A DNA stretch of 64,000 nt, from assembly GCA_965230945.1 (NCBI GenBank), contig OZ246397.1, positions 539,925 to 603,924 of the forward strand, in the 5' to 3' direction. Source of the DNA: an uncultured Gammaproteobacteria bacterium. GTDB lineage: Bacteria; Patescibacteriota; Microgenomatia; PFEM01; JAPLYW01. Positions 13,103-31,057 of the stretch are shown piece after piece. Each line of letters opens with the position of its first letter. Position 1 is the first letter of the stretch. The notes below the pieces were generated by a model. It worked only from the letters and a program-made list of their open reading frames with translations. It had not been told where the DNA came from and made no database searches. Both the position numbers and the translations under genes were made by a program.

Positions 13103-15094
13103 TTAAGGTATTATGTCATATTCTGACCTCGGAAACAAAAAGAGGTCGCTTAAACTTCTTAAGTTAAGTAGTTTAACTAGAAATCTGTCGATACTCAAAC
13201 AGAAACCTCCATGTGGCCTTGGATTTTGAAACGCGTTCAAATAGAATTGATATTTCTTGTGTTTTAATCCTGTTCCTTTTATGCCCTTCAGAAGTTTTTC
13301 GTAATCAGTTTCACGAATAGCCCCCGATGCTATTTCCCAACCTTTATAAATAACATCGAAGCTTAATGTTTTATCCTCCCTATCATGCTTTACATAAAAC
13401 TTTTTTACAGAGCTGGGATATTTTATTATTGCGAACAAATCAGTTTTGTACTTATCTTTGACAATCTTACCAAGCATTTCCTCAAGATCATATCCAAAAT
13501 CTATCCCGTAAGCGACTTTCCCACTTGTGCCTTTGCTATTTAGAAGGCTAAGGGCATCTTCGTAGGTAATTGTTTTTATGGTCTTATTAACTACTTGAGA
13601 TTTTGATATTTCCTTATTTTCATATAGTTTTTTTGTAATCACATTCAATAGAGTTCCCAATAAAGCAATCAGTTGATTTAAATTTTCAACATTAGCCATT
13701 TCTATATCTAAGCCATATGCTTCGGATAAATGCCTAGGAGTTGGGTTTAGTTCTGCTCTCCAAAAAGGACCTAGCTCAAAAAGTTTGTCTATGCCAGAAA
13801 GTATTAAGATCTGTTTATATAATTGGTTTGATTGCCTTAAAAGCATTTTTCTTCCGTACCAATTTACTGTAAAAATTTCCTCGTCTGGATTGTCTCGTAC
13901 GGGGTCAGTTGACACTGCAGTTATTGTGGGAGTATGAATTTCAACAAAACCGAGATATAAAAGTGTCTTTCGAGTAATAAAATAGGCATCACTTTTAAGT
14001 TTAATATTTGGGATTTTGGATTTATAAATTTCGCTATTGATACGAAAGTTTTCGCGTCTGGCATTTTCTTTTAAACTATAGATCATAGCATCCACAGCTT
14101 TTGTTACAGATGTTGAGATAATATCTTTTGCTATAGAGATACTATTTTGCCTTAATTTCTTATTGTATTGTGAATATTCATTTATTGATTTTAGATCATA
14201 AATTTCGTAAAGATTTTTGACTAAAAGAGTATTTTGCGGTGTCCCTAAATCGTATATGAGACAGTATTTGATAGTGCTCAAAAAATCTAGTTGTTCTTTT
14301 TTGAATACATTCGGTGTGGCGAAAAAGATGATGATAGGTTTTACTTTCAAGTTTTTGATGGTATTTAGTCGAACTGCCTTCTTGGCTATTTTATCCTTGA
14401 CTAGTTTTTTTGCTTTATTAATAGTTCTATTTGCTATAACTAGATTTTTATACCCTTTTTCGTTGAGGACTTTACATAACAAACTCCCTGTCGAGCCAGC
14501 ACCAACAATTAGAATGTATGCATCTTGGGGAATCGATCTTTTAATCATCATATCTACGGCTGTTCTTTCCGCAGAGACATTTCCTTTACCAATGTCTGTT
14601 GCATTTCTAACAGCATTTGAGACCTTTCTCGCATTGTTAAAGATTGTTTTTAAAACGATTCCGGCCGTTTTATCATCCGAGGCAATACTTATCGCTTGAC
14701 GTACTTGACCCGTAACCTGATTATCTCCTAAAGTTACACTTTTAAGTCCGCAGGCGGTTTCAAATAAATGCTCAATTACCTTTTTGCCAGAATATTGACA
14801 GATATCGGATATCTTGAAGGAGTTTGGTTTTTGAGATTGCTTCTTCCATAAATTCGTTATTCCGTCCTTATTATCTTCCGCAGCCACATAGTAGATTTCC
14901 ACACAATTGCATTTACTTAGAATTACGCATTCATCCAATCGATATTCATTCTGGAGTTCTTTCGCAAAAGACCGGTGATTTTTAATTAAGTAGGTTTGTA
15001 AAGATTGAAGGTCTCCTGTACCCATTAATGCAGAAAGACAGTGAATCTTTTCTAGTATGTTTTTTGTAATTTTATTTTGGAGCACTAGTGGCAA
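13103..15094 (-). CDS. Fusion protein: glutamyl-tRNA-reductase (HemA)-like catalytic plus NADPH domain (about aa 1-330) joined to an Asp/Asn-tRNA-synthetase-type class IIb catalytic core (about aa 370-663). No anticodon-binding domain.
   Basis: N-terminal half aligns to GluTR by eye: ILSKCNCVEIY (TCNRTE active-site Cys, codon 14909-14911), LKSVTLGDNQVTGQVRQA, ARKVSNAVRNATDIGKGNVS, ILIVGAGSTGSLLCKVLNEKGYKNLVIANRT. C-terminal half carries class IIb aaRS motifs: QSNQLYKQ, FWRAELNPTPRHLSEAYGLDIEMA (motif 2), PHGGFCLSIDRF...LFLFPR (motif 3). TTG start at 15094, first ATG at codon 24. Confidence 0.8.
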   Translation of the reverse strand: MPLVLQNKITKNILEKIHCLSALMGTGDLQSLQTYLIKNHRSFAKELQNEYRLDECVILSKCNCVEIYYVAAEDNKDGITNLWKKQSQKPNSFKISDICQYSGKKVIEHLFETACGLKSVTLGDNQVTGQVRQAISIASDDKTAGIVLKTIFNNARKVSNAVRNATDIGKGNVSAERTAVDMMIKRSIPQDAYILIVGAGSTGSLLCKVLNEKGYKNLVIANRTINKAKKLVKDKIAKKAVRLNTIKNLKVKPIIIFFATPNVFKKEQLDFLSTIKYCLIYDLGTPQNTLLVKNLYEIYDLKSINEYSQYNKKLRQNSISIAKDIISTSVTKAVDAMIYSLKENARRENFRINSEIYKSKIPNIKLKSDAYFITRKTLLYLGFVEIHTPTITAVSTDPVRDNPDEEIFTVNWYGRKMLLRQSNQLYKQILILSGIDKLFELGPFWRAELNPTPRHLSEAYGLDIEMANVENLNQLIALLGTLLNVITKKLYENKEISKSQVVNKTIKTITYEDALSLLNSKGTSGKVAYGIDFGYDLEEMLGKIVKDKYKTDLFAIIKYPSSVKKFYVKHDREDKTLSFDVIYKGWEIASGAIRETDYEKLLKGIKGTGLKHKKYQFYLNAFQNPRPHGGFCLSIDRFLVKLLNLRSLSDLFLFPRSEYDIIP

Positions 15095-15118
15095 TATAGC
15101 AAAAAAACAGAGCTAAAA

Positions 15119-15144
15119 CAATTCAGGCTTCTTGAGGAAGTTTT
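15119..15144. repeat. 26-nt near-exact direct repeat (copy A: aATTCAGGCTTCTTGAGGAAGTTTT), 25 nt upstream of the fusion-gene start
   Basis: 25/26 identity with 16691-16716, which lies inside the rsmA N-terminal coding region. The minus-strand reading of copy A encodes NFLKKPEL followed by a stop. Confidence 0.7.
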
Positions 15145-15431
15145 AGATTTTGTGTATTTTATAGTATTTTGGTAAAATTTCCCTTATGAGTAAAAAGAAA
15201 GCTTTGAAAGAACGACCCCTTACTTAAGGAATTCAGAAAATATTTTGTTTATGTAAATAATTTGAGAAATAAATTGGAATTTGTGAAGGATCGACAAAAA
15301 AAGAGAGGGAGTAACCTTCGGACAAAACCTTAGGTGTGCCCTCTCATCGTGATAATAATATCATACTCCTTTTTGAGAATTTGTCAAGGTTTTTTCCTAT
15401 TTGAGCGTTAGCGAAAACAAGGTTTCCTTAT

Positions 15432-15462
15432 TTGACATTTATATCTTTGATGTTCTAAAAAT
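15432..15462 (+). promoter_or_regulatory. sigma70-like promoter candidate TTGACA-N18-TAAAAT facing the structured element
   Basis: TTGACA at 15432-15437 and an A/T-rich -10 at 15456-15462; the 11-mer TATTTGACATT also occurs at 16963-16973. Confidence 0.3.
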
Positions 15463-15476
15463 AGGCTCATATCTTT

Positions 15477-15581
15477 AAGGTGCGGAGGTAGAATACCCAA
15501 GGTTTGAATAGCTTTCAACCTTTAAGGTTGAAATGTTGTAACATCCTGCAACCAGTTTGATCGAAAGGACTGTAGCACCTT
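15477..15581. ncRNA. structured RNA element of unknown class in the 738-nt region between rsmA and the fusion/aspS operon
   Basis: Closing helix AAGGTGC(15477-15483)/GCACCTT(15575-15581) around a perfect 9-bp hairpin TTTCAACCT-tta-AGGTTGAAA (15513-15533). Confidence 0.3.
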
Positions 15582-15832
15582 CGAACAAGCAATTACATGA
15601 GGTAGGGAAGAAAGAGGCCTTAATACAATTTGTGATTGATAAAATCTATAAAAGAGCAAAAACTGAATTGATTACTTTAGAAACCTTCCGATCGCTTTTG
15701 ATTATGATTTCTATTGTTTGTGTTATAGCATATTTTGGAAGGAAAAACAAATTTTTAATCTAATTGCCTAACAGTTCTAAGTTGTGCTCCTTCGTAACTG
15801 GATGTTTCTGGGACATGTTTTTAGGTATCAAC

Positions 15833-16831
15833 TTAGGACACCTGGAAGGCATACCTGATGTTTTTCCAATCAGCCTGAATTCTAGTTCTATGAATTTTTT
15901 CTAATTTTGCTTGTTGTTTTTGGAGGTTTTTCTCTGCACCAATTGTTAGTTGCTTTTTGTGATTTGCTACTTCAACTAAAAAATATTTAAATAGCCCGAG
16001 CCATTGGTTAAACTTAATTTCTGTAGGGGTTGCTGATTGGCTAAAGTTTAAATCTTTGGCCAGCTTTTTAAATTGTTCTCTAGTAAAGATTTTTCTTAAA
16101 GCTTCTTTAAGTGTTGGTTGCCACTGGCTAAAGGTATAGGCGAGAAAGTCTTTATAGAGTTGACTATTTTTGGTATCCACCACTGACTCTTTTCTCTTTT
16201 GGAGCCGAAGTAAGACGGTATTGACGCCTGGGGGTGGTTGAAAATCTCCCCGTTTAAAATTATGGATAACTTTTGGTTCAAACCATGGTTTGATTAATAA
16301 AACAGACAAAGTTTCTTTACTAGTATAAGGGGAACCAGTAAATTTTTTGGCGGCTTCTTCCTGAACAATAAGATAGGTATCCTCAGGTGAATTTTCTGTA
16401 TTGACAAGTTTTTTTATTATGTCAGCCGTTATGTTGAACGGAATATTGGAAAAAACCTTATATTCTGTTTGGGGGAGTTTGTATTTTAGAAAATCTCCCT
16501 GATGAATTTTTATTTTAGGATTTTGGCCAAAACGATGTTTTAATTTTAAGAATAAGTCTTGGTCTTTTTCAATTGCGATTACTTTTTTACAGCGAAAGGC
16601 GAGTTGTTCGGTAATAATACCCCGACCTGGACCTACTTCATAGACTATATCTTTAGGGTCAATTGAAGATTTTTCCAAAAGATGTTGTACTAATTCAGGC
16701 TTCTTAAGGAAGTTTTGTGAATAAAGGATGCTTTTTCTTTCTGGATATTCTTTTTCAGACATACGCTTTTGCTTATGATATTTCATTGACTTAGGCATAA
16801 TGGCAGTTCCTAAGTATACCATTTTACTCAT
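15833..16831 (-). CDS. rsmA: rRNA adenine N6-dimethyltransferase (KsgA/RsmA family) with a C-terminal extension of about 60 aa
   Basis: YSQNFL, VYEVGPGRGIITEQL (SAM GxGxG), FSNIPFNIT; 332 aa against about 270 typical. Confidence 0.75.
   Translation of the reverse strand: MSKMVYLGTAIMPKSMKYHKQKRMSEKEYPERKSILYSQNFLKKPELVQHLLEKSSIDPKDIVYEVGPGRGIITEQLAFRCKKVIAIEKDQDLFLKLKHRFGQNPKIKIHQGDFLKYKLPQTEYKVFSNIPFNITADIIKKLVNTENSPEDTYLIVQEEAAKKFTGSPYTSKETLSVLLIKPWFEPKVIHNFKRGDFQPPPGVNTVLLRLQKRKESVVDTKNSQLYKDFLAYTFSQWQPTLKEALRKIFTREQFKKLAKDLNFSQSATPTEIKFNQWLGLFKYFLVEVANHKKQLTIGAEKNLQKQQAKLEKIHRTRIQADWKNIRYAFQVS
16691..16716. repeat. 26-nt repeat copy B (inside rsmA codons for NFLKKPEL)
   Basis: AATTCAGGCTTCTTAAGGAAGTTTT; 25/26 identity with 15119-15144. 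Confidence 0.7.
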
Positions 16832-16967
16832 TTTTTAGCGATAATTGATAATATTTATTTACTTGACAGAAAGGCTTGGAGAAGGGAAGCCTACAGATTC
16901 GATATTAACTATTTCTATGAGGGTTTATACAGCTATTGATTTTTTATTAAACAACAGTCTTCTCTAT

Positions 16968-17006
16968 TTGACATTACTGGATTTGGTGGTTTAAACTTGC
17001 TATAAT
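16968..17006 (+). promoter_or_regulatory. promoter candidate: TTGACA (16968-16973) plus extended -10 TGcTATAAT (16998-17006)
   Basis: Consensus hexamers 28 nt upstream of the 17034 start; a TGCTATA(A/C)T extended -10 recurs at 23901, 38731 and 20846. Confidence 0.35.
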
Positions 17007-17033
17007 TAGTCAAATTAATAATCTGCTTAGAAA

Positions 17034-18128
17034 ATGTCAGAATCAAAGATGCCAAAAGAAAAGGTAGAAATTGAATATTCAGGAACGAATCCTCTTATTA
17101 ATTCAGGAAAAGAGGCAATTGAAAATTACAAAAAAATAGCTGAGGAGAATAAGAAGGATGTTTCTGGAGAAGCTTACAAAAAGGTTCTCAGACAAACGGC
17201 AAGGATTCTCGCAACAACATTACCTCTTCCTCTTCTTACTGCTTGTGCCGCTTGTGAGAAACCACCGGTCGTTGAGGAACAGCAGCAGGAAGAAGGGAAA
17301 GGACAGGAGACAGTTCCTTCTGAAACAGCTGAAACAGAAAAGGAGACTGTTCAGGAAGAAACTCCTCCGGTGGTTGAAGAGACTCCTGAAAAAATTGAAT
17401 GGGAAGGGGTCACCATTTCCCCAGTAGAAGGCTTAAAGTTTGATAAGGGAGATTTCTATTTTATGGAAGGAAATGAATATGGCGGGATACCTGGAGAAAA
17501 AGCAGGAGTTTTGGTTAAAGATGGCTTAGAGGTTAATGGGAAAATGGAAAATGCCATTGGTTTAGATCCAATGGTAATTGAGTTTAAAGAAAAAGAGATA
17601 TTTAAGGAAACCAAAGAGCGTTTATTACCTATTCTTATTGACCTAACCAAGTCTAAGGACGTAAAACTACAGGAATTAAATGCAGCAGGAGCAGAAATTG
17701 GTAGAAAAGTTTTAGCTTTCAATGTTGCTATTGGGACGGAGTTTTTGTCACCTCTTTCTGGAAGTTGGGGTATGTTTAAACCCTTTCCGAATGTTGAAGA
17801 TAAATGCTTTTTTATTAATTGGGATATTGGAGTGGAAGGACAATTGGGTGGGTGGGATATCTATTTTAGAGATGCGGAAGTTTTGGCCAAAATGGAAAAA
17901 GAGGTATCAATTCTTAACCCTAAAGATACTAATAGACAGACTCTTATGGAAACAGAAGTCAAATTAGGCGACCCCTTAGGAAAAATTACAAGTAACACTC
18001 CCTTAGAAGAATTTTCCAAAAGTGGCTGGGGTGATTATCAAATTGTAGCTTTTCTTAAAAATAAAGATAGAATTATGGAAGTTGGTAGCGGAGCTGATGC
18101 TTGCAAGGTTTTTATTTTTAACCAATAA
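17034..18128 (+). CDS. hypothetical protein with a Glu/Pro/Thr-rich low-complexity linker
   Basis: 364 aa with an internal hydrophobic segment ending LLTACAAC (lipobox-like); the C-terminal globular domain has no recognisable motif. Confidence 0.45.
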   Translation: MSESKMPKEKVEIEYSGTNPLINSGKEAIENYKKIAEENKKDVSGEAYKKVLRQTARILATTLPLPLLTACAACEKPPVVEEQQQEEGKGQETVPSETAETEKETVQEETPPVVEETPEKIEWEGVTISPVEGLKFDKGDFYFMEGNEYGGIPGEKAGVLVKDGLEVNGKMENAIGLDPMVIEFKEKEIFKETKERLLPILIDLTKSKDVKLQELNAAGAEIGRKVLAFNVAIGTEFLSPLSGSWGMFKPFPNVEDKCFFINWDIGVEGQLGGWDIYFRDAEVLAKMEKEVSILNPKDTNRQTLMETEVKLGDPLGKITSNTPLEEFSKSGWGDYQIVAFLKNKDRIMEVGSGADACKVFIFNQ

Positions 18129-18189
18129 ATTTTCTCAATTACTCATATTGACAAATTTTGATTTGAAGAGATAAACTAAATTAGGGATA

Positions 18190-18819
18190 ATGTCTAAAAA
18201 AATTAAAGTTTTTCTGTCCTTAATATCCTTAGTTTCTGTCGTTGCAACTGTGGGGATATTTTTTGATTTTGGTTTTAAAAAATTATTCTTAAAATCAAAA
18301 ATTTTTCCGTCCGAAAATAAAAAAACGGTTATTTCAAATATAACCCCAACCCCTTCTCCCGTCTTGGAATTTGTAGAATTACTTCATCTCCCTGAAGGTG
18401 CTTTAGATTTAACTTTACCTGTTGAAAGAAGTTATTTCGAAGCCATGAAAGAAAATACTCCAAAATATCCTGATGCTATTTCATTTAATCTTAATGAAAA
18501 TGAGGAAGTTAAAGCTATTTTTGATGGAAAAGTTGTGAGTGTTCAATATGTTGATAAGGAAACTATTGGGGATCAACCTAATGATTTTCTTACAATTTGG
18601 ATTGAAAGCAGAGATGAAATGCTAGTAGCTAGTTATCTTGTTGCAGGAGAATTTTTATTAAAAGAAAATGAGGAAATAAGATCCGGAGAAAGCTTAGCTA
18701 GAATTGGGAAAGGGATTGTTCCCTTTAGCAATGATGCTAATTTTAGTTTAACTATTATGAAATTGGAAGATGATGAATATAAAACAATAGCTTTAGATAA
18801 AGGAATGTTTTTACGATGA
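18190..18819 (+). CDS. hypothetical secreted protein
   Basis: N-terminal signal/TM; stop overlaps the start of the next gene (ATGA). Confidence 0.45.
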   Translation: MSKKIKVFLSLISLVSVVATVGIFFDFGFKKLFLKSKIFPSENKKTVISNITPTPSPVLEFVELLHLPEGALDLTLPVERSYFEAMKENTPKYPDAISFNLNENEEVKAIFDGKVVSVQYVDKETIGDQPNDFLTIWIESRDEMLVASYLVAGEFLLKENEEIRSGESLARIGKGIVPFSNDANFSLTIMKLEDDEYKTIALDKGMFLR

Positions 18820-20708
18820 GAAAAATGAAATTAATAAAAGTTAATTTTTTATTTAGGGTTTTATTAATAATTCTTTCTTTCTTTGCCTTCCTTTTTATCT
18901 TTAGGTCTTCAGCTTTAGCAGCTTTGTGGCCTTGCGTAGATTGCTACGATTGCAGCAGATGTGCTGCTTCATGTGGTAATGCTGGGACTGGGTCTTGGGT
19001 TTATGAGGGTTGTGGCAGGAATCGCTGCCCTCCAACTCAAACTTATCGATGGAGAAACATTCTTACCTGTTACTGTGGTAGATATCGTATTTGTAGAGTT
19101 GAAGATGGGTGTGTGAATAGTCCGAGCTGCGTGCCAGCTTGTTCTAATACATCTGACTGTGGTCATACATGTGCAGCTAATGGTTGTGATGCTTGTGCCT
19201 GTGATGGTGATTCTCGAAGTAGTTCCTATAACTGGACTTCTTTAGGTTGTTCAAGAGATTGTAGAACCTGTTATTGCGGTAGAATTAGATGTAGCTGTAC
19301 TGGATGGTCAAATAGATCCTGTGGAGGAGGAAGTTGTTCTTCTACCAAAATGCTCCAAACAAGGACGTGTACGCCTTCCGGTTGTAGCTCTACTTCAAGA
19401 TGTGTGAGTACTTCTGCTTGTCAGTGTAGCTGCTCTGGATGGTCAAATGGATCCTGTGGAGGAGGAAGTTGTTCATCATTGCAGAGACTTCAGACTCGTA
19501 CTTGTACGCCTTCTGGCTGTAGTTCTACTTCTAGGTGTGTTGGCGACTCTAGTTGTTGTCAGTGTACTAGTTGGGTAAATGGTGCTTGTGGTCCAGATGG
19601 GAGTTGTGCGGTAGGACAACGCAGGCAGACAAGAACTTGTAGCCCTTCTGGTTGCAGTTCTACTTCTCGGTGTGTGATTGATGCTAGTTGTAATGCGTCA
19701 TGCACTATTAATTTATCCCCCATATCTCTGACTTTAAGTACAGGAAGATCTGATCTAATCACTGCTGAGGTAAGTGTGGAGAATGCAACCGTGGATAGAG
19801 TAGATTTTTCCTCTAATAATCCTAGTGTAGCTTCCGTTGATCCTTCTAGTGACTCAGGTTCTCCTTATCGTACTCAAGCAACAGGTGTAGATGTTGGAGA
19901 AGCGGAGGTAAGTGCTCAGGCTATTTTGAATCCCTCTGGCTCATGTAATACGAGTACACCTACCAGTATAACGGTAGAATTCGGTGGCTGGTTCCAAACC
20001 CAAGGTGGTACCATTCATGCAGAAGGTAATCTGTCTAATAAAATTCCTTCCACAGCCAGCGATAGGAACTTATCTATGGCTGTAGGTGGTTTTCCAGGAG
20101 TTATCTCTCATCAATCAGCAATAGAGGCTAATTTTGGTGAAGGTTATCCTTCCAATGATGATCCTAATCATTGGCTAGCCAAATCTTCCTACCAAGGCAA
20201 GAACTTTGGTTCTTGGGGGTTCTTTGTTAAGAAATACAGTACCAGGATGACAGAGAACTTTGATGGCACCCTTCCAAACAAAGACGGTATTTATTATTCC
20301 GGATCAGGCAAAACACTACAGGGAAACTGGAAATTGCCTGCTAACCGCTGGTTGATAATTATGGTTGAAGGCAATATTAACATTCCTGTAGACATTACTG
20401 TTCCAGACACCAGTTTTTTAGCTTTGGTAAGCGCCAATGATATTATCTTTGAAAGCTCTGTTTCCCAAGCCCAAGGCATGTTTATAGCTGATGGAAGTAT
20501 AGACACCAATACCGGTTCAACCCAGTTTCAAGCTGAAGGCTTCTTTGCTGCTTCCCAGTTTATCCTAAGCAGGGACCTAGAAGATAACAACCCAACCACA
20601 CCTGCAGAATTATTTACTTTCAGACCAGACTTTCTTATCAATTCCTATAAAGATGCTGATAATAATCTTTGGTGGTTTGATTTTAAATGGGAGGAAATAG
20701 CCCCATAA
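18816..20708 (+). CDS. Secreted cysteine-rich surface protein with three tandem thrombospondin-type-1-like repeats, followed by a bacterial Ig-like region and a C-terminal beta-rich domain
   Basis: Signal peptide; repeats C(S/T)GWSNxSCGGGSCSSxxxLQTRTCTPSGCSSTSRCV, which resemble the TSR consensus W-x-x-W-x-x-C-x-x-x-CGxG-x-x-x-R-x-R-x-C; more than 70 Cys in the N-terminal 290 aa. Confidence 0.6.
   Translation: MRKMKLIKVNFLFRVLLIILSFFAFLFIFRSSALAALWPCVDCYDCSRCAASCGNAGTGSWVYEGCGRNRCPPTQTYRWRNILTCYCGRYRICRVEDGCVNSPSCVPACSNTSDCGHTCAANGCDACACDGDSRSSSYNWTSLGCSRDCRTCYCGRIRCSCTGWSNRSCGGGSCSSTKMLQTRTCTPSGCSSTSRCVSTSACQCSCSGWSNGSCGGGSCSSLQRLQTRTCTPSGCSSTSRCVGDSSCCQCTSWVNGACGPDGSCAVGQRRQTRTCSPSGCSSTSRCVIDASCNASCTINLSPISLTLSTGRSDLITAEVSVENATVDRVDFSSNNPSVASVDPSSDSGSPYRTQATGVDVGEAEVSAQAILNPSGSCNTSTPTSITVEFGGWFQTQGGTIHAEGNLSNKIPSTASDRNLSMAVGGFPGVISHQSAIEANFGEGYPSNDDPNHWLAKSSYQGKNFGSWGFFVKKYSTRMTENFDGTLPNKDGIYYSGSGKTLQGNWKLPANRWLIIMVEGNINIPVDITVPDTSFLALVSANDIIFESSVSQAQGMFIADGSIDTNTGSTQFQAEGFFAASQFILSRDLEDNNPTTPAELFTFRPDFLINSYKDADNNLWWFDFKWEEIAP
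19290..19695 (+). repeat. three diverged tandem repeat units of about 135 nt inside the CDS, encoding the TSP1-like modules
   Basis: Units start at about 19290, 19425 and 19563, e.g. tggatggtcaaatagatcctgtggaggaggaagttgttc against tggatggtcaaatggatcctgtggaggaggaagttgttc. Confidence 0.7.
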
Positions 20709-20845
20709 AAAACCATCTGCGGTAAAGAATCTAAGTTCTAGAAGAGGGCAAAGCTAATCAACTAGTTTTTTCTAAAAGATTCTTGCTCTTTTTATAATAT
20801 TTTCTCCTAAAAGTTAAATCTATAGTTGAGTCTTTAATATTTTTC

Positions 20846-20906: not shown

Positions 20907-20931
20907 GCGGAATAAGAAAAACATTGTTTTT

Positions 20932-21648: not shown

Positions 21649-21650
21649 TT

Positions 21651-23894: not shown

Positions 23895-24025
23895 ATTTTC
23901 TGCTATACTGAATTAGTCTATGCTTTATTCAAAACTTTTTGGAAAAACAATAAAGGCAGCTCCTAAAAAAGCAGAAGCTATTTCCCATCAGTATCTTGTT
24001 AAAGCTGATTTTATAATTAATTTAC

Positions 24026-24883
24026 TTGAAGTTTAAATTTTTTATGAAAAGAATTGTTATTCATATTAATCCAGATTTGGATGCTGTTGCTTCAGTTTGG
24101 CTTATCAAAAGATTTTTGCCTCGTTGGGAAAAAGCAGAAATAGGTTTCTGTCAGGCAGAAACAACTTTTGATGGGAAGCCAGTAGATAGTGATCCTGATA
24201 TTTTACATCTTGATGTTGGTTTAGGTAAACTTGATCATCATCAAACTGATTGTTTTACTTCGGCAGTTAAACTCACTTTAGATTTCATCTTAGAAAAAAG
24301 AAAAGGACAAGAGTTGAGCCCTTTAGATTTAGAGGCTTTAGAGCTCATGGTAGAAACGATTAATGAAATTGATAATGCGCGAGATTTGAATTGGCCGGAA
24401 GTTAAAAAAGAGCGTTATGATTTTTATCTCCATTCTATTTTAAGTGGTTTAAGAAGAATGGGGAAAACTGATATTGAACTAGTTGAATACGGTTTTTTAG
24501 GGCTAAATGCTGTTTTTAAGAATCTTAAAGCAGGGATAAAAGCCAAAGAAGAAATAAAAAAGGGGATTGAATTTCAGACTCCTTGGGGAAAGGCAATTGC
24601 CTTGGAGACCGGTAATGAATTATTTTTATGGGAAAGTGAAAAAGCTGGTTATTATTTAGTGGTTAAAAAGGATCCTGACGATGGTGATGTTAGAATTTAT
24701 GCTCGTTATGATAGTGATGTTGATTTGAAAAATGTTTATCAAAAATTTAAAGAGATGGATAAAGAATCTGATTGGTTTTTACACGCTTCCGGTAAGTTGT
24801 TATTAAATGGATCTCGGGTTAAAAAGATGAAACCAACAAAGTTAAGTTTAGAGCAAGTAATTGGGGTGTTGAAAAATGGTTGA
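24026..24883 (+). CDS. DHH-family phosphoesterase (NrnA-like nanoRNase/pAp phosphatase)
   Basis: IHINPDLDAVAS (motif I) and GKLDHHQTD (DHH motif). The likely ATG is at 24044; the track start at 24026 is a TTG. Confidence 0.6.
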   Translation: MKFKFFMKRIVIHINPDLDAVASVWLIKRFLPRWEKAEIGFCQAETTFDGKPVDSDPDILHLDVGLGKLDHHQTDCFTSAVKLTLDFILEKRKGQELSPLDLEALELMVETINEIDNARDLNWPEVKKERYDFYLHSILSGLRRMGKTDIELVEYGFLGLNAVFKNLKAGIKAKEEIKKGIEFQTPWGKAIALETGNELFLWESEKAGYYLVVKKDPDDGDVRIYARYDSDVDLKNVYQKFKEMDKESDWFLHASGKLLLNGSRVKKMKPTKLSLEQVIGVLKNG

Positions 24884-25199
24884 TTGTATTTTTTGTCAAA
24901 TTGCTCAAAAAAAGATACCAGCAGAGATTGTTTATGAAGATAAAAAGATCATTGCTTTTAATGATGTTAACCCTAAAGCACCTGTCCATATCTTAATTAT
25001 TCCTAAGAAACATATTAAAGATTTTATTAGTTCTGGAAAATTCTTTCCTAAGATTTTAAAAGTTGCTAAAGACTTAATTAAAAAGTATAATTTAGATAGG
25101 AATGGTTATAGATTAGTAGTCAATGGCAGGAGTGCAGCGCTTGTCGATCATTTACATTTACATCTTTTAGGAAAAATAACTGTTGATAGGAATGTTTAG
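24876..25199 (+). CDS. HIT-family (histidine triad) nucleotide hydrolase
   Basis: 107 aa; CIFCQI N-terminus; HLHLHLLG histidine triad at the C-terminus. Confidence 0.8.
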   Translation: MVDCIFCQIAQKKIPAEIVYEDKKIIAFNDVNPKAPVHILIIPKKHIKDFISSGKFFPKILKVAKDLIKKYNLDRNGYRLVVNGRSAALVDHLHLHLLGKITVDRNV

Positions 25200-25236
25200 G
25201 GGAAGTTATTCTAATAGGGTAAATTATTTTTAAGTA

Positions 25237-25307
25237 CGGGGCGTAGCTCAAAATAGAGCAGCGTACTTGGTGTACGATGTATAGTGGTTTAAATCCATTC
25301 GCCCCGA
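25237..25307 (+). tRNA. tRNA-Pro(UGG)-like element with atypical D- and T-loops, 36 nt upstream of the proS start; either a divergent tRNA or a tRNA-mimic operator
   Basis: Hand-folded cloverleaf. Acceptor CGGGGCG/CGCCCCG is 7/7 Watson-Crick. U8 A9. D-stem GCTC/GAGC with a 6-nt D-loop AAAATA (no G18G19). Anticodon stem GCGTA/TACGA. Loop CUUGGUG (U33, anticodon UGG, U at position 37). T-stem AGTGG/CCATT with loop TTTAAAT (no C56). Discriminator A; no encoded CCA. Confidence 0.45.
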
Positions 25308-25343
25308 CAAATTTAAAGAGATTAAGAAATAATATGATTTTCT

Positions 25344-26792
25344 ATGAATGAAAAAGAGAAGGTTAATTTTTCTTCTAAAGAATTAGGAGTTAAGGTGGAA
25401 TCAGATAAAATTTCTGAGTGGTATAATAAAATAATTAAAGAGGCTGATTTGATTGATCAAGGCCCAGCTAAAGGGACGATGGTTTTTCGTCCTTATGGTT
25501 ATGCTCTTTGGAAAGGAGTTCAAAAGAGTCTTGGGTTTAAAATAGAAAAGAATGGGGTTGAAGATGCTTATTTTCCTGCTATAATTCCAGAAAAACTTCT
25601 AGTTAAAGAAAAAGATCATATTGAAGGTTTTTCTCCGGAATTTTTACGTGTTCGAGGTAGAAGTGGAGAAATTGGAGTATTGAGGCCAACTTCCGAAGCT
25701 GTAATGTATCCATTATTTAAGAAGTGGATTCAATCTTACAGAGATTTACCCCTTAAAGTAAACCAGTGGTGTAATGTTTTTAGAGATGAGTTAAGAACGT
25801 ATGCTTTAATACGCACTTCTGAATTTCTTTGGCAGGAGGGTCATTGCGTGTATGCTTCAGCAAAGGAAAACGAAGAAGCAGTGATGGATTTTTTAAATAT
25901 GTATAAGAATTTTTTTCGTAATACTCTTGCTGTATCTCCTATTTTTGGGAAAAAAAGCGAAAAGGAAAAATTTGCAGGAGCTTTATATACTACAACTGGC
26001 GAAGCAGTTTTACCAGGAGGGAAAGCTCTTCAAGTTTGTACTTCTCATAATTTAGGGACAAATTTTGCAGAAGCCTTTGATATACAATTTTTAGGTAAAG
26101 ATGGCAAACAACATCACCCATATCAGACAAGTTGGGGTTTAAGCTGGCGGGTTATTGCCGCGATGATTATGAGTCACGGTGATAAAAAAGGGCTTATTTT
26201 TCCACCAGAAATGGCCCCTACGCAAGTAATAATTATACCTATTAAAGGTTCATCTGATGAAGTAGTTATGGAAGCAGCAAAATCTATAAAAGAAAGATTG
26301 TCTGATTTGAGAGTTGATATAGATAAGTCAGATGCAAGGCCAGGAGCTCGTTATAATTATTATGAACTTAGAGGAGTACCTTTAAGGATTGAAATTGGCG
26401 CCCGTGATATTCATAATAATCAGATAATAGTTGCAAATCGATTAACTGGTGATAAAAAAGCTCTGCCTTTAGGTGGTCAGCTTAGAAAAGGCATACAGTT
26501 GTCATTAACATCAATACAAGAGTCTTTATTAAAGAAATCTGAAAGTTTAGTTAAAGAAAGTACCAAAGATGTAAAGACATGGGAAGAATTTAAAGAGATT
26601 CTTAATAAAAATGGAGGTTTTCTGAGAACTTATCACTGTGGAAATAGAGATTGTGAACAACAAATTCAGGATGAAACAAAAGCAACATTAAGATGTATCC
26701 CTTTCGGTTATGAAAAATCAGAGGGAAAATGTGTTAGATGCGGAAAACCATCTAATTATGGTCAAAAAGTACTTTTTGCTAAGGCCTATTAG
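25344..26792 (+). CDS. proS: Prolyl-tRNA synthetase, archaeal/eukaryal-type (class IIa) with a C-terminal zinc-binding domain
   Basis: Motif 1 region FRPYGYALW, motif 2 FRDELRTYALIRTSEF, motif 3 GLSWRVIAAMIMSHGDKKG, anticodon-binding domain, C-terminal CGNRDC...CVRCGK. Confidence 0.85.
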   Translation: MNEKEKVNFSSKELGVKVESDKISEWYNKIIKEADLIDQGPAKGTMVFRPYGYALWKGVQKSLGFKIEKNGVEDAYFPAIIPEKLLVKEKDHIEGFSPEFLRVRGRSGEIGVLRPTSEAVMYPLFKKWIQSYRDLPLKVNQWCNVFRDELRTYALIRTSEFLWQEGHCVYASAKENEEAVMDFLNMYKNFFRNTLAVSPIFGKKSEKEKFAGALYTTTGEAVLPGGKALQVCTSHNLGTNFAEAFDIQFLGKDGKQHHPYQTSWGLSWRVIAAMIMSHGDKKGLIFPPEMAPTQVIIIPIKGSSDEVVMEAAKSIKERLSDLRVDIDKSDARPGARYNYYELRGVPLRIEIGARDIHNNQIIVANRLTGDKKALPLGGQLRKGIQLSLTSIQESLLKKSESLVKESTKDVKTWEEFKEILNKNGGFLRTYHCGNRDCEQQIQDETKATLRCIPFGYEKSEGKCVRCGKPSNYGQKVLFAKAY

Positions 26793-26800
26793 TATTTTCT

Positions 26801-27571
26801 ATGTTTATGGAATGTAGTAGTAAATTAACATTGTCAAATATTCCTTCCGATTATCCACTTCCTAACCTTTATTATTTCTCTTCCAAATTTTTAACAGAAA
26901 TTCGTAAACAGGTGACAGGTGCTGTTTCAATTTTAAATCAAAATGGTTTTGAAGAATGTCATTTCCCTTTTTTAGTTCCGAGAAGCCTTTTATTGTATTA
27001 TAAGAACTTAATATCTTTGGAAGATTTTATAAAAGTATATTCAGGGAAAGATAAGCGATCATATGCTTATTTGAGACCAGATGGTGTGTTTAGTCAAGGG
27101 ATCACTTTAGCAAAAGAAATGATTAAGAGTTATCGTAATTTACCCTTGAAATTATTCGAAGTATCCCCAAGCTATAAAAGATTAAAGAACAAAACCAAAG
27201 GGAATGTCTTTACTTCTCCAGAAGAGTCTTTTTCTATACAAGGTGGAGTATTTATTGAGGATAAAGACGAAAATGAATTTCTTCAGACGATTATTTCTAG
27301 AATTCTAAATAACTTCTCAATACCGTATATAGCCAAAAATAATAAATTATGTAAATATGGGGGAATAAATTATAGCACTCTTTTTAGTGACAATGAGATA
27401 AATCTCGCTAAAATTTGTGTTTTTGATCAAGAAGTTACTCGGGAAGCAAACATTTATTTTTTTAATAAAGAGGGAAGGAGATCTTTTCCATACATGTATA
27501 GCTTTAGCTTATCTCAAAACATTTTTTTAATTAGTCTTTTAAAAAATGAAAGAATAGGATTAGAAAAGTGA
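26801..27571 (+). CDS. ProRS-like paralog truncated to the N-terminal catalytic region (256 aa); no anticodon-binding or Zn domain
   Basis: YAYLRPDGVFSQGITLAKEMIKSYRNLPLKLFEVSPSYK parallels the proS segment [37 protein letters not shown]; very AT-rich. Confidence 0.55.
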   Translation: MFMECSSKLTLSNIPSDYPLPNLYYFSSKFLTEIRKQVTGAVSILNQNGFEECHFPFLVPRSLLLYYKNLISLEDFIKVYSGKDKRSYAYLRPDGVFSQGITLAKEMIKSYRNLPLKLFEVSPSYKRLKNKTKGNVFTSPEESFSIQGGVFIEDKDENEFLQTIISRILNNFSIPYIAKNNKLCKYGGINYSTLFSDNEINLAKICVFDQEVTREANIYFFNKEGRRSFPYMYSFSLSQNIFLISLLKNERIGLEK

Positions 27572-28995
27572 ATAACATATCAGAAGAGAAATTGATAGAT
27601 TGGCTGAAGTTTTATGTTAACTTTGGTGATATAGTAAATGATGATTTTCCTACTAAAGGAGCTTGTTCTTGGTACCCTTATGGATATTCTTTAATGAAGA
27701 ATATCCTTCATTTAGCATCAAATATTTTAATTAAGAAAGCTAAGTTTAAAGAGATTGTTTTACCATCTTTTGTTCATGGTGAAGATTTCATGAAAGAATG
27801 CAAAAATATAAAAGATTTTAGTGAACGTGTATATTGGTCGCCATTATATAGAAAAGACGATCTACATGTAGTAACTCCTACAATTGAAGCACAGTTAGGT
27901 GCTCTTTATAATAAATGGCTACAAGCAAATAAAAAACTTCCGTTTAAGTATTTTACGATAAGGGGAGTAGGTCGTTATGAAACTGGAAGGACAATTCCTT
28001 TATGGAAGGAACGTAACGTTTGGCCTTTTTTTGAAGGGTTAACGGTTCATAGTTCTTCATCTGATTTTTTAGCTACCATAAAACAACAAATAAATTTTAT
28101 GGAAGTTTTTTTTGAAGAACTTGGAATTCCTGTTTTAATCCTTGAAAGACCTAAGATTAATTCTCGTTTGTGTGAATATTCTGAGCGAAGAATAGAAGCT
28201 GTTACGATAACTAAAGATAAGAGGGTTGTAATACTAGCAAATATATATGATTTAGGAGAAATATTTAGTAGAGTATACGATATCTTTTATATCGTTAAGA
28301 ATACTAAATATTATGCCTTAACTTCTGCGATAGGTTTATCTGGTAGGGTGTTGGCTACCTTGTTGACTATAAATGGCGATAAAGATGGTTTTATTCTTTC
28401 TCCAATGATTGCTCCAATTAAGTTAGCGATATTACCAATTTATAATAAACCAGCTTTTACTAAGCTAGCAAAAAAGATAGAAGTTTATTTAAGTAAAAAA
28501 GGTATAGTTTCAAAGAATTTTCCGGCTGTGTCTTCGTTGGGAGAGAGGAGAAGAAAAGTAACAGCAATGGGGATACCTTTTTTAATAGAGATTGGATCAA
28601 ATGAAATAAAAAGCTCGTCAGTATTAATAAAAGAACGTGTTCTTACTCATAATTCTACAGAATGTGAAATAAAAGAAATACCTTATATTATTAAGAAACG
28701 AGGCAAAATAATGAATAAGTTTATTAAGCAGAAAGCATTTAAAGAATTCAATTTACTTACTAAGTCTGTTAAGTTAAAGAAAAATTTTCTTTATTGCCTT
28801 AAAGATGAGATTTTAACAGAATCATTTTTTTGTAATAATCCAAATTGTTATAATAAAATGGCAGAATTGTCAAATAGAGAAATAATTGGTCGTAATTATA
28901 AAGCTAAAATAAATAAAAAATCTAAATGTATAGTTTGTGGAAAAACAGCATCTCAAGGTATTTATTTTGGTATTAAATGGAAGGGAGAAAAGTGA
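27568..28995 (+). CDS. Full-length divergent ProRS-family paralog (475 aa: catalytic, anticodon-binding and Zn-ribbon domains)
   Basis: PTKGACSWYPYGYSLMK, VTPTIEAQLGALYNKWLQANKKLPFKYFTIRGVGRYETGR (motif 2 altered), GLSGRVLATLLTINGDKDG (motif 3), SPMIAPIKLAILPI, C-terminal CNNPNC...CIVCGK. Confidence 0.6.
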   Translation: MNNISEEKLIDWLKFYVNFGDIVNDDFPTKGACSWYPYGYSLMKNILHLASNILIKKAKFKEIVLPSFVHGEDFMKECKNIKDFSERVYWSPLYRKDDLHVVTPTIEAQLGALYNKWLQANKKLPFKYFTIRGVGRYETGRTIPLWKERNVWPFFEGLTVHSSSSDFLATIKQQINFMEVFFEELGIPVLILERPKINSRLCEYSERRIEAVTITKDKRVVILANIYDLGEIFSRVYDIFYIVKNTKYYALTSAIGLSGRVLATLLTINGDKDGFILSPMIAPIKLAILPIYNKPAFTKLAKKIEVYLSKKGIVSKNFPAVSSLGERRRKVTAMGIPFLIEIGSNEIKSSSVLIKERVLTHNSTECEIKEIPYIIKKRGKIMNKFIKQKAFKEFNLLTKSVKLKKNFLYCLKDEILTESFFCNNPNCYNKMAELSNREIIGRNYKAKINKKSKCIVCGKTASQGIYFGIKWKGEK

Positions 28996-28997
28996 TT

Positions 28998-29912
28998 ATG
29001 GATTTTTTAAAAAAGGGAGACACTATTGGGGTGGTTGCTCCTGGCTCGCCAGTGCCTAAAAAAAATATAAAAAAGGGAGTTAATGTTCTTAGTAATATGG
29101 GCTTTAATGTAAAATTAGGTAAGCATATTTTTAGTATTACTGGCTATACGGCAGGAATTGCAAAAGATCGTGCTAATGATATTAATAGGTTTTTTTCTGA
29201 TTCTCAGATTAAAGCGATAATTGCTGCTCGTGGTGGTTATAATTGCAATCAGATCTTACCATTTTTAGATTATGGACTTATTAAAAAAAACCCAAAGATT
29301 TTCTTAGGTCTTAGTGATGTAACTGCAGTGTTAAATGCTATTGTTTTGAAATCGAATGTTATAACATTTCATGGCCCAGTTCTTTTAATGATAGGGGGTG
29401 GAAGAGATGGTAAAGTATTCTCTAAGTATTCCAAAGAAAATTTTGAAAAAATACTTATGAATGAAAAGAAAAGGTTTATTAATGTAGTTAATGCCTTTGA
29501 TAATTGGATTGTTTTAAATAAAGGAAAAGCTGTAGGCAAACTTTTTGGCGGGAACCTCTCTTCTTTAATAAGTATTATTGGTACATCATATGAACCAAAT
29601 TGGAAAAATGCGATTCTAATGTGGGAAACGCTGGAAGAAAAATTAGAAATGATAGATCAGATGTTAACACATCTGAGATTAGCTGGAATTTTTGATAAAA
29701 TTAATGGTATGATGGTAGGTAAGTTTGTTGATACTAAACAGGGAAGAGATACAGAGATTATTAAAATGATTTTAGAACAATGCAGGGGATATGATTTTCC
29801 GATAATTTATGGGGTTGATTTTGGCCATACTAACGAAAATTTAATATTACCTATAGGTGGGGAAATTAGTTTTAATACAGAAGAAGAATTTCTTAAGATT
29901 ATTAAATATTAA
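28998..29912 (+). CDS. Peptidase S66 family (LD-carboxypeptidase LdcA / microcin-C immunity MccF-like serine hydrolase)
   Basis: IGVVAPGSPV, nucleophile motif LGLSDVTAV, C-terminal GVDFGHT...PIGGE His motif. An alternative ATG at 28977 overlaps the upstream stop. Confidence 0.7.
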   Translation: MDFLKKGDTIGVVAPGSPVPKKNIKKGVNVLSNMGFNVKLGKHIFSITGYTAGIAKDRANDINRFFSDSQIKAIIAARGGYNCNQILPFLDYGLIKKNPKIFLGLSDVTAVLNAIVLKSNVITFHGPVLLMIGGGRDGKVFSKYSKENFEKILMNEKKRFINVVNAFDNWIVLNKGKAVGKLFGGNLSSLISIIGTSYEPNWKNAILMWETLEEKLEMIDQMLTHLRLAGIFDKINGMMVGKFVDTKQGRDTEIIKMILEQCRGYDFPIIYGVDFGHTNENLILPIGGEISFNTEEEFLKIIKY

Positions 29913-29923
29913 ATTAGAAATTT

Positions 29924-31057
29924 ATGGGGCCTTATCAGGCGAAGCCAGGCGGTGTTATTTCTTATTTAGGCAATAAGATTTATCCTCCAGTTGAGGATGT
30001 ATTAGCTGTTTCTTGGCCACCAAAAGATTTAGTAGACAGAGTTGGATCTATTTATCGAGATAAGAAGTGGTACCACCTGCATAAAATTGATGCCTCAATT
30101 TTTACTGCTACGACACAATTCTTCCAAAGTATAAATGCTGATTGGGTTAATCTACCTCTTACCACTATGATGATTTCTTCTCCTGGTGAAGTTTATGCTG
30201 GACAAAGACTAAATTACACAACAGATACTTTACCTATGGAAATTCCTAATTGGTTTCATACTGGTAATAGAGTGTTTCTTTCAGAATCTTCACAGTTTTA
30301 TCTAGAATTAAGATTAATAATTGATAAGCTGGATAAAGTTTTTTCGATTTATAATTCTTTTAGGAAGGAAAAAGCTGATGCTACTCATTTATCAGAATTC
30401 CAACATGTTGAGTTTGAAGGACATGTTAATTTCAAAAATAACATAAATACTTTTATCAATTTGATTAATTATATTTTAAATTTTCTTTTACAAAATAACG
30501 AAGATAATTTATCTTTTTTTCTTGAAGATCAAGATATAAATGAATTATCTCGAAGCATGAAAAAGATTTTTAAGGTTCCGTTTGTCGAAATTTTAAAAGT
30601 TCTTTTTAAGGAAACTGGAAATAATAAATATAAAGAATTTTCAATGAAGAATTTTGGGTCGTGGGAAGAAATTTTTATTACTCAGATTTACGGCGGTAAT
30701 GTGTTAGCTCTTAATTTCCCTATGTTGCAGATCCCTTTTTATCATGAAATAAGTAAGAAAAAAGTTGGGGGTGTTCCTGTAGCTGAAAATGCAGATTTAA
30801 TACTTCAAGGATATAGAGAAACTGTTGGGAGTGGATTAAGAATTACAGATCCAAAGGCTTTGGCAGAAAAAGCAAAAATTTTTAATCTACCTATAGATGA
30901 CTATAAACCTTACCTTGAGACACGTAAGATGAAGAAATATAAAACATCGGCTGGTTTCGGTTTAGGTTGGCAAAGATTTACGCAATGGATTTTAAAATTA
31001 CCATATATTTGGGAAACAACCCCAACTCCTCGTGGACACACAAAACCAAGGCTTTAA
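29924..31057 (+). CDS. Standalone class IIb aaRS catalytic core (AsnA / AsnRS-AspRS-like); no anticodon-binding domain
   Basis: Motif 2 FSIYNSFRKEKADATHLSEFQHVEFE, motif 3 SAGFGLGWQRF, C-terminal IWETTPTPR (compare AsnRS IRDVIPFPR). Confidence 0.6.
   Translation: MGPYQAKPGGVISYLGNKIYPPVEDVLAVSWPPKDLVDRVGSIYRDKKWYHLHKIDASIFTATTQFFQSINADWVNLPLTTMMISSPGEVYAGQRLNYTTDTLPMEIPNWFHTGNRVFLSESSQFYLELRLIIDKLDKVFSIYNSFRKEKADATHLSEFQHVEFEGHVNFKNNINTFINLINYILNFLLQNNEDNLSFFLEDQDINELSRSMKKIFKVPFVEILKVLFKETGNNKYKEFSMKNFGSWEEIFITQIYGGNVLALNFPMLQIPFYHEISKKKVGGVPVAENADLILQGYRETVGSGLRITDPKALAEKAKIFNLPIDDYKPYLETRKMKKYKTSAGFGLGWQRFTQWILKLPYIWETTPTPRGHTKPRL

Follow-up and report, generated by a model that had tools for sequence, protein, structure and literature searches.

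A 64,000-nucleotide (nt) stretch of DNA from an uncultured member of the Patescibacteria (contig OZ246397.1, positions 539,925 to 603,924; hereafter, the window) encodes, in addition to a genuine aspartyl-tRNA synthetase (AspRS), two proteins that carry an Asp/Asn-type class IIb synthetase core without the OB fold. One of them, a 663-aa protein referred to below as the fusion (13103..15094, minus strand), joins a half resembling glutamyl-tRNA reductase (GluTR) to an archaeal-type AspRS core, and the other, ORF377 (29924..31057, plus strand; 377 aa), is a core derived from asparaginyl-tRNA synthetase (AsnRS). We lean towards the view that these are two independent systems, the fusion being an Asp-specific counterpart of GluTR and ORF377 an AsnRS-derived adenylate-forming enzyme, which came to lie close to each other by coincidence. 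The reading that we favour for the fusion is an aspartyl-(tRNA/adenylate) reductase, which would yield an aspartate-derived amino aldehyde.

The original prediction, made from the letters of the window and its open reading frames (ORFs), had read the two OB-less cores as parts of one expanded aspartyl/asparaginyl-adenylate side chemistry of this genome, with reduction at one locus and hydrolysis or transfer at the other. Pfam and NCBIfam bear out its inventory of two OB-less class IIb cores and a genuine aspS, each gene lying where it had been placed, and neither core turned out to be a fragment, a misread gene or a pseudogene: both ORFs are intact, the family lengths are conserved and the catalytic residues are invariant. 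The notion of reduction at one locus also fits the GluTR-like half, which keeps the catalytic cysteine and beside which aldehyde-reductase genes recur in relatives, and next to the second core there is indeed a hydrolase, an MccF-like S66 peptidase. The proposed unity of the two loci did not hold up. The cores share 25% identity (BLAST), rank the family hidden Markov models (HMMs) differently and come out as sisters in 9 of 100 neighbour-joining (NJ) bootstraps; in an NJ tree of 29 cores, those of the fusions are monophyletic within the AspRS clade (100/100 bootstraps), and the relatives of ORF377 form a group of their own (99/100). As judged from these comparisons, the origins of the cores are separate, archaeal-type AspRS in the case of the fusion and AsnRS-like in the case of ORF377. 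The two loci are 15 kb apart, with rpsB-tsf-frr-rseP and other housekeeping genes between them, and their conserved neighbourhoods (inspected in relatives with flanks of up to 10 kb) differ; across 24 fusion loci and 13 ORF377 loci, homologues of the fusion and of ORF377 never occurred within ~8 kb of each other. Moreover, ORF377 is not peculiar to this genome and belongs to a phylum-wide family, whereas the fusion is rare. That both cores are of the Asp/Asn type, apparently adenylate-competent and located within 18 kb would agree with a single genome-specific chemistry, but with the low identity, the tree, the intervening genes, the lack of co-occurrence and the unequal distribution against it, this reading is barely plausible, and the closeness of the two loci in the window is a coincidence. 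A further suggestion, that the cores might be PoxA/EpmA-like, finds no support either, since both score ~20 bits with TIGR00462 (cutoff 286.9) and no efp or epmB neighbours were seen.

Pfam divides the fusion into a GluTR-type catalytic domain (GlutR_N, PF05201; residues 40-166, 14597..14977; 1.5e-26), an NADPH-binding Rossmann domain with an invariant G198-x-G200 (Shikimate_DH/NADP, PF01488; residues 190-302, 14189..14527; 2e-13) and an Asp-type class IIb catalytic core (tRNA-synt_2; residues 363-657, 13124..14008; 1.4e-53), all on the minus strand, and finds no OB fold (PF01336) anywhere in the 663 aa. Public gene calls begin the protein at M24 (640 aa). Because homologues conserve C-L-S at positions 21-23, upstream of M24, the TTG start at 15094, which gives 663 aa, or another start nearby upstream is likelier. 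The two halves are equally distinct in comparisons with known structures: PDB sequence matches comprise AspRS 3nel (1.9e-47) as well as GluTR 4n7r and 1gpj, and Foldseek aligns the N-terminal half of an AlphaFold2 model with GluTR 1gpj (366 columns) and its C-terminal half with archaeal AspRS 3nel/1b8a (32-33% identity over ~308 columns).

In the GluTR-like half, L-S-K-C-N-C-V-E-I-Y aligns on the L-S-T-C-N-R-x-E-I-Y motif of GluTR (LSTCNRMEIY in Arabidopsis, and the corresponding motif of M. kandleri), so that S-K61-C62-N63-C64 stands in place of S-T-C-N-R and C62 (codon 14909-14911) falls on the Cys of the Arabidopsis TCNR and on the position of M. kandleri C48. Residues K61-C62-N63 are invariant in 15 aligned fusions, in which S119, D124, Q126, H109 and the G-x-G NADPH motif are invariant or nearly so. 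Further fusion representatives all read [Q/S]-K-C-N-[C/S/A], where ordinary GluTRs have T-C-N-R; in every fusion, the Arg position is thus occupied by Cys, Ser or Ala, and an invariant Lys stands where Thr precedes the Cys. In the M. kandleri GluTR structure, we take the aligned Cys to be the nucleophile and the Arg of TCNR to bind the gamma-carboxylate of glutamate. Retention of the former together with loss of the latter suggests that the catalytic machinery has been kept and the side-chain reader altered, and it is plausible that the new Lys beside Cys62 reads the shorter side chain of aspartate. The hemA model TIGR01035 gives the fusion 162.2 bits against a cutoff of 209.55, and the GluTR dimerisation domain PF00745, present in ordinary GluTR matches, is absent from all fusions.

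The class II half retains R420-Q-S-N-Q424, K427, the motif 2 R446, D463/E465, E587, R594 and the motif 3 H628-G-G..D636-R637, and these columns are invariant in the 15 fusions. As they include every Asp, ATP and Mg contact of AspRS, the core still looks catalytically competent. Its motif 2 loop reads N-x-T-x-R-H, as in tRNA-charging AspRS. The NCBIfam ranking puts archaeal/non-discriminating AspRS (237 bits) ahead of AsnRS (134) and AsnA (102), the score with NF003483 being 237.4 bits against a cutoff of 353 with only model positions 137-438 matched; identity to the neighbouring AspRS amounts to 24%. The AlphaFold2 model (pLDDT 82.5, pTM 0.50) connects the two halves by a long helical linker, residues 301-380 (13955..14194, minus strand; helices 301-317, 319-352 and 354-380), which is the counterpart of the GluTR spinal helix and leads from the NADPH domain to the first helix of the class II core. 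In our estimation, the core can stand in for the lost GluTR dimerisation domain, since obligate dimer formation is a property of class IIb cores.

We count ~19 protein clusters and 20 metagenome loci with the fusion architecture, the most divergent at 26-34% identity. When 1.84 billion representative proteins were scanned with the GluTR-like half (HMMER), 11 matches fell below 1e-30, and ~14 representatives are of fusion length; we found no paper on a GluTR-AspRS fusion in the literature. In the window, the fusion gene ends 5 nt before the start of the AspRS gene (11718..13097, minus strand), a gap that makes the two genes co-operonic, and 10 other distinct loci, with fusions as little as 30% identical, show the same order; most loci with the pair have a gap of 1-10 nt. 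The partner is a 459-aa bacterial-type AspRS that possesses both OB fold and core (585 bits against a cutoff of 443) and lacks the GAD insertion, its match to the 590-column model falling into two stretches; Southlakia, a cultured Saccharibacterium, has an AspRS that includes the GAD domain and works with GatCAB.

Two kinds of enzyme genes recur next to this pair. An Amidohydro_2 metal-dependent hydrolase with an H-x-H motif (10618..11664, plus strand; 348 aa; PF04909, 3.2e-14) is linked to fusion-AspRS in nine distinct loci, its orthologues (44-71% identity) adjoining the fusion in L003, L005, L017-L019, L021, L023 and L028; the likeness of the window protein to PDB entries is weak and restricted to uncharacterised hydrolases and lactonase-type Amidohydrolase 2. 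A short-chain dehydrogenase/reductase (SDR), closest to the semialdehyde/3-hydroxy-acid reductase YdfG, stands beside the fusion in 7 of the 17 loci analysed. At the distant locus L002, the fusion is flanked instead by an iron-dependent alcohol dehydrogenase (Fe-ADH), closest to small-aldehyde reductases, and by another H-x-H hydrolase. The latter has no significant pairwise similarity to the window Amidohydro_2, and we therefore treat the two hydrolases as analogous rather than orthologous. The Fe-ADH is a non-orthologous replacement of the aldehyde-reductase step, and such a swap at the same position argues that the aldehyde made by the fusion undergoes further reduction. The variant of the GluTR reaction that the fusion would represent is rare and apparently undescribed, and its conserved operon is a coherent one.

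Several further observations concern these loci. Within 6 kb upstream of the fusion, L002 carries two archaeal-type AspRS genes and an AsnRS-like gene (878-6897), with a HIT gene following an archaeal-type AspRS, and full-length archaeal-type AspRS genes are present in the related genomes L002, L028 and L039. A stand-alone fusion-type core of 329 aa (L027, 7908-8897; 49% identity), with no GluTR half in its vicinity, nests within the clade of the fusions, and in L036 (4156-6066) a GluTR-like half with a T-K-C-N-A motif is joined to an unrelated C-terminal part of ~290 aa, which indicates that the GluTR-like and class II modules also occur separately or recombined. In the window, the best sigma-70-like site of the region (TTGACA-16 nt-TATGAT, 11 of 12 matches) lies ~200 nt upstream of the fusion gene (~15295-15387, minus strand) and is followed by a hairpin, GAGAGGG...CCCTCTC plus seven T (-19.5 kcal/mol), that could be a leader/attenuator or a small RNA. 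This promoter-plus-hairpin element has no Rfam match, and its sequence is not conserved at other loci; a T-box or another known RNA leader upstream of the fusion-AspRS operon was sought in Rfam, which returned tRNA-Leu only.

From these features, we infer the carrier, the carboxyl group that is activated and the end product of the reaction as follows. The fusion core would form aspartyl-adenylate from Asp and ATP, and the activated Asp would be loaded by the core on the 3′ end of tRNAAsp, or else Asp-tRNAAsp would be supplied by the co-transcribed AspRS. Attack of Cys62 on the activated alpha-carboxyl would then give a thioester, the reduction of which by NADPH would release L-aspartate 1-semialdehyde (3-amino-4-oxobutanoate). 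In relatives, the linked aldehyde reductase, be it the YdfG-like SDR or the Fe-ADH, may convert this product to an amino alcohol, and the linked Amidohydro_2 protein may add a hydrolytic, lactonase or decarboxylase step. A role in haem formation is not suggested by the surroundings, as neither hemL nor haem genes occur in the window or in ~24 fusion loci. As a second aminoacyl-tRNA reductase, specific for Asp-tRNA, the fusion would be new, a prospect that we consider evenly balanced.

A number of observations weigh against an aspartyl-(tRNA/adenylate) reductase. No SDR adjoins the fusion operon in the window, the most divergent fusions (26-34% identity) have no AspRS neighbour, and no dedicated tRNA gene lies beside the fusion loci or, for that matter, the ORF377 loci. 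The 'EGG' flipping loop of AspRS is replaced in the fusions by an invariant D-P-V-R and a five-residue insert, modelled with low confidence, which could alter Asp binding, and in some highly divergent fusions the pockets are changed or the motif 2 Arg is gone. We also know of no metabolite that needs aspartate 1-semialdehyde. Finally, at a pTM of 0.50, the model gives the orientation of the two halves, and hence the distance between the active sites, with low confidence, and on this distance hinges the choice between a tRNA carrier and a direct hand-off of the adenylate.

The direct hand-off is the alternative that we would entertain most seriously, if only tentatively. Here, the class II core would make aspartyl-adenylate and the GluTR-type Cys would attack it without any tRNA, in a synthetase-based counterpart of the adenylation-thiolation-reductase (A-T-R) modules of non-ribosomal peptide synthetases (NRPSs), of carboxylic acid reductase (CAR) and of alpha-aminoadipate reductase. 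The lack of an anticodon-binding domain, the absence of linked tRNA genes, the full invariance of the adenylation residues and the covalent joining of the modules in nearly all members agree with it. The ~80 helical residues (301-380) that separate the modules in the model do not, nor does the motif 2 loop, which retains the pattern that in AspRS contacts the acceptor stem, as in the yeast AspRS-tRNA complex; in addition, most closer relatives have a complete AspRS in the same operon, and GluTR chemistry is known only from a tRNA ester. It is accordingly doubtful that Patescibacteria possess a self-contained aspartate alpha-carboxyl reductase that hands the adenylate straight to the Cys and feeds an undescribed amino-aldehyde/amino-alcohol pathway. 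The fused core might instead serve for dimerisation and binding of the acceptor end only, with the neighbouring AspRS making Asp-tRNAAsp for the reductase domain. It does occupy the exact place of the GluTR dimerisation domain, as an obligate dimer could, its co-operonicity with AspRS is conserved, and a few divergent members (P0162, P0159) lack the motif 2 Arg or Glu; nevertheless, every ATP-, Mg- and Asp-binding residue is invariant in the main clade, which would not be expected of a scaffold and renders this explanation quite unlikely. Lastly, the core could bind Asp in the flipped orientation of AsnA and activate its beta-carboxyl, so that the product would be L-aspartate 4-semialdehyde and the fusion a one-protein bypass of aspartokinase and aspartate-semialdehyde dehydrogenase (ASD) that feeds homoserine or diaminopimelate/Lys. 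The replaced flipping loop, which in AspRS clamps the alpha-amino group, could be read in this way, ASD shares the Cys-thioester/NADPH chemistry, and the linked aldehyde reductase could yield homoserine. We regard this as highly unlikely, given that S422, Q424 and D463 (contacts of the alpha-amino group in AspRS) as well as K427 and R594 (contacts of the side chain) are kept as in genuine AspRS, that the positions aligned with the active-site Ser, Asp/Glu and Gln of GluTR, which we take from the M. kandleri structure to bind the alpha-amino group, are also kept, and that dapA, dapB, hom and thrB are missing from the ~24 fusion loci.

Comparison with known systems helps to place the proposed aspartyl-(tRNA/adenylate) reductase. 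It has in common with GluTR/HemA (1gpj, 4n7r) the catalytic domain with the Cys of the C-N motif, the NADPH Rossmann domain and the long spinal helix, and the predicted chemistry, formation of a thioester followed by hydride transfer to give an alpha-amino aldehyde, is the same; it differs in having a class II core in place of PF00745, KCN[C/S/A] in place of TCNR, linkage to AspRS rather than GluRS and no haem genes nearby. With archaeal/non-discriminating AspRS (3nel, 1b8a, 1n9w), it shares the fold of the core, motifs 2 and 3 and the Asp-binding Q-S-x-Q..K, D and R, and it departs from them by the missing OB fold, by QSNQ instead of QSPQ and by the altered flipping loop. NRPS A-T-R modules, carboxylic acid reductases, alpha-aminoadipate reductase and ASD all activate a carboxylate, form a thio-intermediate and reduce it with NAD(P)H to an aldehyde. 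The logic resembles that of the fusion, but the folds are unrelated (ANL plus an SDR-type R domain, or the GAPDH-like ASD), and the fusion has no carrier-protein domain. A further parallel, among synthetase fusions that use up their own aminoacyl-tRNA, is ErdS, a complete AspRS with its anticodon domain fused to a DUF2156 aminoacyl-tRNA transferase, which transfers Asp to ergosterol (PMC9437257): there, too, covalent linkage brings an AspRS module together with a domain that employs activated aspartate outside translation, although the fusion has no anticodon domain and its partner is a reductase. Among AspRS paralogues, a 2022 review lists AS-A/AS-AR and ErdS only, and no reductase fusion (PMC9437257).

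Turning to the second core, Pfam recognizes in ORF377 tRNA-synt_2 alone (residues 107-370; 3.9e-25) and no PF01336. The NCBIfam asnS model aligns from model position 124 onward, so that only the OB domain is missing, and the gene starts 11 nt past its upstream neighbour, a gap too short to have housed a lost OB exon; the possibility of a split AsnRS with a separate OB gene was discarded within the 64 kb of the window, as no OB fold was detected in its ten small ORFs. More than 460 clusters are homologous to ORF377, and the best 120 listed are almost all 376-400 aa long. The family is spread over the Patescibacteria, the named hits being Patescibacteria records only, and 20 diverse members have a mean column identity of 66%. 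Its invariant residues include the motif 2 R147, E299, R306, the motif 3 R351, Y126-L127-E128 and H161-x-E163-x-E165, by which the pocket appears to be of the AsnRS type and the core still looks catalytically competent. AsnRS is the best family, the best PDB sequence match and the best fold match: NCBIfam scores decrease from AsnRS (132 bits) through archaeal AsnA (108) to AspRS (75), and the AlphaFold2 model (pLDDT 83, pTM 0.88) has AsnRS 9sh8 and 1x54 as its top Foldseek hits (E 3e-21, TM 0.75). The score with the AsnRS model NF003037 is 132.3 bits against a cutoff of 414. ORF377 shares the Y-L-E, H-x-E-x-E and Arg pocket with canonical AsnRS (1x54, 5zg8/9sh8) and differs from it in the OB fold, the motif 2 loop and an insert. 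Compared to ORF377, canonical Patescibacteria AsnRS have ~100 extra N-terminal residues, which make up the OB domain, and ORF377 for its part has an 11-residue insert in the flipping-loop region and a motif 2 loop that is one residue shorter and devoid of their two basic residues. We found no paper on an OB-less AsnRS-like family in Patescibacteria.

The most constant feature of the ORF377 surroundings is an S66 serine peptidase, in the window a 311-aa protein (28977..29912, plus strand; PF02016 and PF17676). A homologue lies at most 5 kb from the ORF377 homologue in all 14 loci, namely the window, two close relatives and 11 genome loci that span Saccharibacteria, Paceibacteria, Gracilibacteria, Peribacteria and Vampirococcus, among others. 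The window peptidase contains both S66 domains, its G-x-S-D (G-L-S-D) and G-H-T align with the catalytic motifs, and its PDB scores are higher with Lmo1638, BA_5613 and E. coli MccF (137-147 bits) than with LdcA-type proteins (75-100 bits), by which measure it is closer to MccF-like proteins than to LdcA. In the window, the two genes close a tight five-gene operon (25344-31057, plus strand) that opens with a genuine ProRS (25344..26792; 482 aa; proS_fam_I, 526 bits against a cutoff of 437), followed by a degenerate class IIa core without the catalytic arginines (26801..27571; 256 aa; PF00587, 2.3e-4, below the cutoff, and alignment) and a divergent ProRS paralogue (27568..28995; 475 aa; 208 bits with the same model, and alignment) that has retained its anticodon domain, its Zn C-terminal domain and the Arg residues of motifs 2 and 3. 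The class IIa core and the ProRS paralogue overlap by 4 nt, and the latter overlaps the peptidase gene by 19 nt; the operon is also found in relatives L039 and L040, where the counterparts of the class IIa core measure 240-248 aa. Directly upstream of ProRS lies a HIT-family hydrolase (24876..25199, plus strand; 107 aa). HIT enzymes hydrolyse aminoacyl-adenylates and phosphoramidates, and the gene thus suits the adenylate theme of the operon.

In several other classes, the ORF377 homologue is separated from the peptidase by a SAM methyltransferase and by a protein with weak resemblance to HisRS. L007 (6812-11024), L011, L013, L015 and L016 are of this kind, with a methyltransferase of ~278 aa and a HisRS-like protein of 374-409 aa that resembles HisRS in the motif 3 region only, and at L008 a divergent 436-aa LysRS-like protein (10056-11366, minus strand; 243 bits against a cutoff of 468) is situated between the methyltransferase and the peptidase. 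The 64-kb window has no homologue of these methyltransferases or of the HisRS-like protein, and the 256-aa class IIa core was rejected as a counterpart of the latter, as neither BLAST nor HMM comparison detected any similarity.

By analogy with known OB-less cores, ORF377 is most likely an AsnA/AS-AR-type ligase that would form an Asp or Asn adenylate outside tRNA charging and transfer it to ammonia or another amine, an assignment that we make with modest confidence. Like AsnA/AS-AR (3p8t, 1nnh), ORF377 is an OB-less Asn/Asp-type class IIb core with its catalytic residues in place, and its pocket would be compatible with the binding mode of AsnRS and with the flipped mode of AsnA alike; unlike these 294-aa enzymes, it has 377 aa, forms its own monophyletic family and is strictly linked to S66. 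The enzyme would work with the MccF-like peptidase, whose task would be to form, trim or degrade the cognate aspartyl/asparaginyl conjugate. What tempers our confidence is that the scores with the AsnA/AS-AR models are far below the cutoffs (NF005055, 108.4 against 389; NF005053, 78.7 against 322; NF005054, 59.4 against 309) and that an AsnA-like role leaves the strict S66 linkage unexplained. Two other features also weigh against it: such a role does not account for a degree of conservation (49-58% identity across classes) that is about what housekeeping synthetases show, and, where MccF-like proteins have a longer loop, the window peptidase shows gaps of ~15-20 residues in the 138-175 region.

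The high conservation, comparable to that of AspRS, would be readily understood if ORF377 were a working AsnRS that charges tRNAAsn without an anticodon-binding domain, possibly together with a partner protein. The retention of all catalytic residues and of the AsnRS-type pocket, the frequent synthetase or translation genes among the neighbours (ProRS, GlyRS, LysRS-like, rpsU-yqeY-ybeY) and the label asparagine--tRNA ligase that some records give to ORF377 homologues point in the same direction. Against this stand the absent OB fold, with no stand-alone OB gene in the window, and the shortened motif 2 loop without basic residues. Moreover, conventional routes to Asn-tRNA exist in the phylum: canonical OB-containing AsnRS is found in Patescibacteria, GatCAB is essential in Southlakia, which has two PF00152 proteins only (LysRS and AspRS), neither an AsnRS nor an ORF377 homologue, and a close relative of the window encodes an archaeal-type Asp-tRNAAsn ligase 2.3 kb from ORF377. 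ORF377 is therefore likelier to be a paralogue outside translation, and a function as AsnRS is unlikely. Another explanation takes the HIT gene, ProRS, the ProRS paralogues, S66 and ORF377 as an operon for resistance or self-immunity against microcin C-like mimics of aminoacyl-adenylates, in which ORF377 would bind or make the compound and S66 would cleave it. The peptidase does score best with MccF-type immunity peptidases, a HIT hydrolase lies upstream, and the methyltransferase-fold gene between ORF377 and S66 in other classes recalls mccB/mccD/mccF as we know them. Such an immunity module is nonetheless rather improbable: vertical conservation at 50-80% identity over much of the phylum would be unusual for a toxin/immunity cluster, we saw no gene for a precursor peptide, an MccB/ThiF-like protein or an exporter, the window peptidase is shorter in the loop region specific to MccF, and PADLOC detected no anti-phage defence matches. 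In its favour counts also that duplicated synthetases are a known resistance strategy (PMC9437257).

The window as a whole is chromosomal DNA of a small-genome member of the Patescibacteria (candidate phyla radiation). Its G+C content is ~35%, homologues of its proteins carry Patescibacteria labels, and housekeeping genes abound, including mreBCD, PBP2, topA, tmk, ksgA, rpsB-tsf-frr, CysRS, HisRS, dnaB, ssb and recR. Also encoded is a 630-aa protein (18816-20708, plus strand) whose N-terminus bears a hydrophobic segment; it further contains four copies of a Cys-rich repeat, C-(T/S)-P-S-G-C-S-S-T-S-R-C-V, and then a Big_2-like region, and is probably secreted or exposed at the surface.

Among aminoacyl-tRNA reductases, only GluTR has, to our knowledge, been described, an enzyme tied to tetrapyrrole synthesis. 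If the proposed function of the fusion is correct, a GluTR-type enzyme has been retargeted from Glu to Asp and welded to a synthetase core of its own, and the reduction of aminoacyl-tRNA or aminoacyl-adenylate would be a more general route to amino aldehydes. The fusion would then be a compact two-step enzyme that gives chiral amino aldehydes from free amino acids, and, should the adenylate be handed over directly, it would constitute a new mechanistic class of carboxylate reductase made from parts of the translation apparatus. For the Patescibacteria, which are thought to be nearly devoid of biosynthesis, it would mean a new metabolic branch. ORF377 and its invariant S66 partner, in turn, are among the better-conserved uncharacterised protein pairs of the phylum, and the role of ORF377 bears on how these epibionts obtain Asn-tRNA and withstand synthetase-targeting antibiotics.

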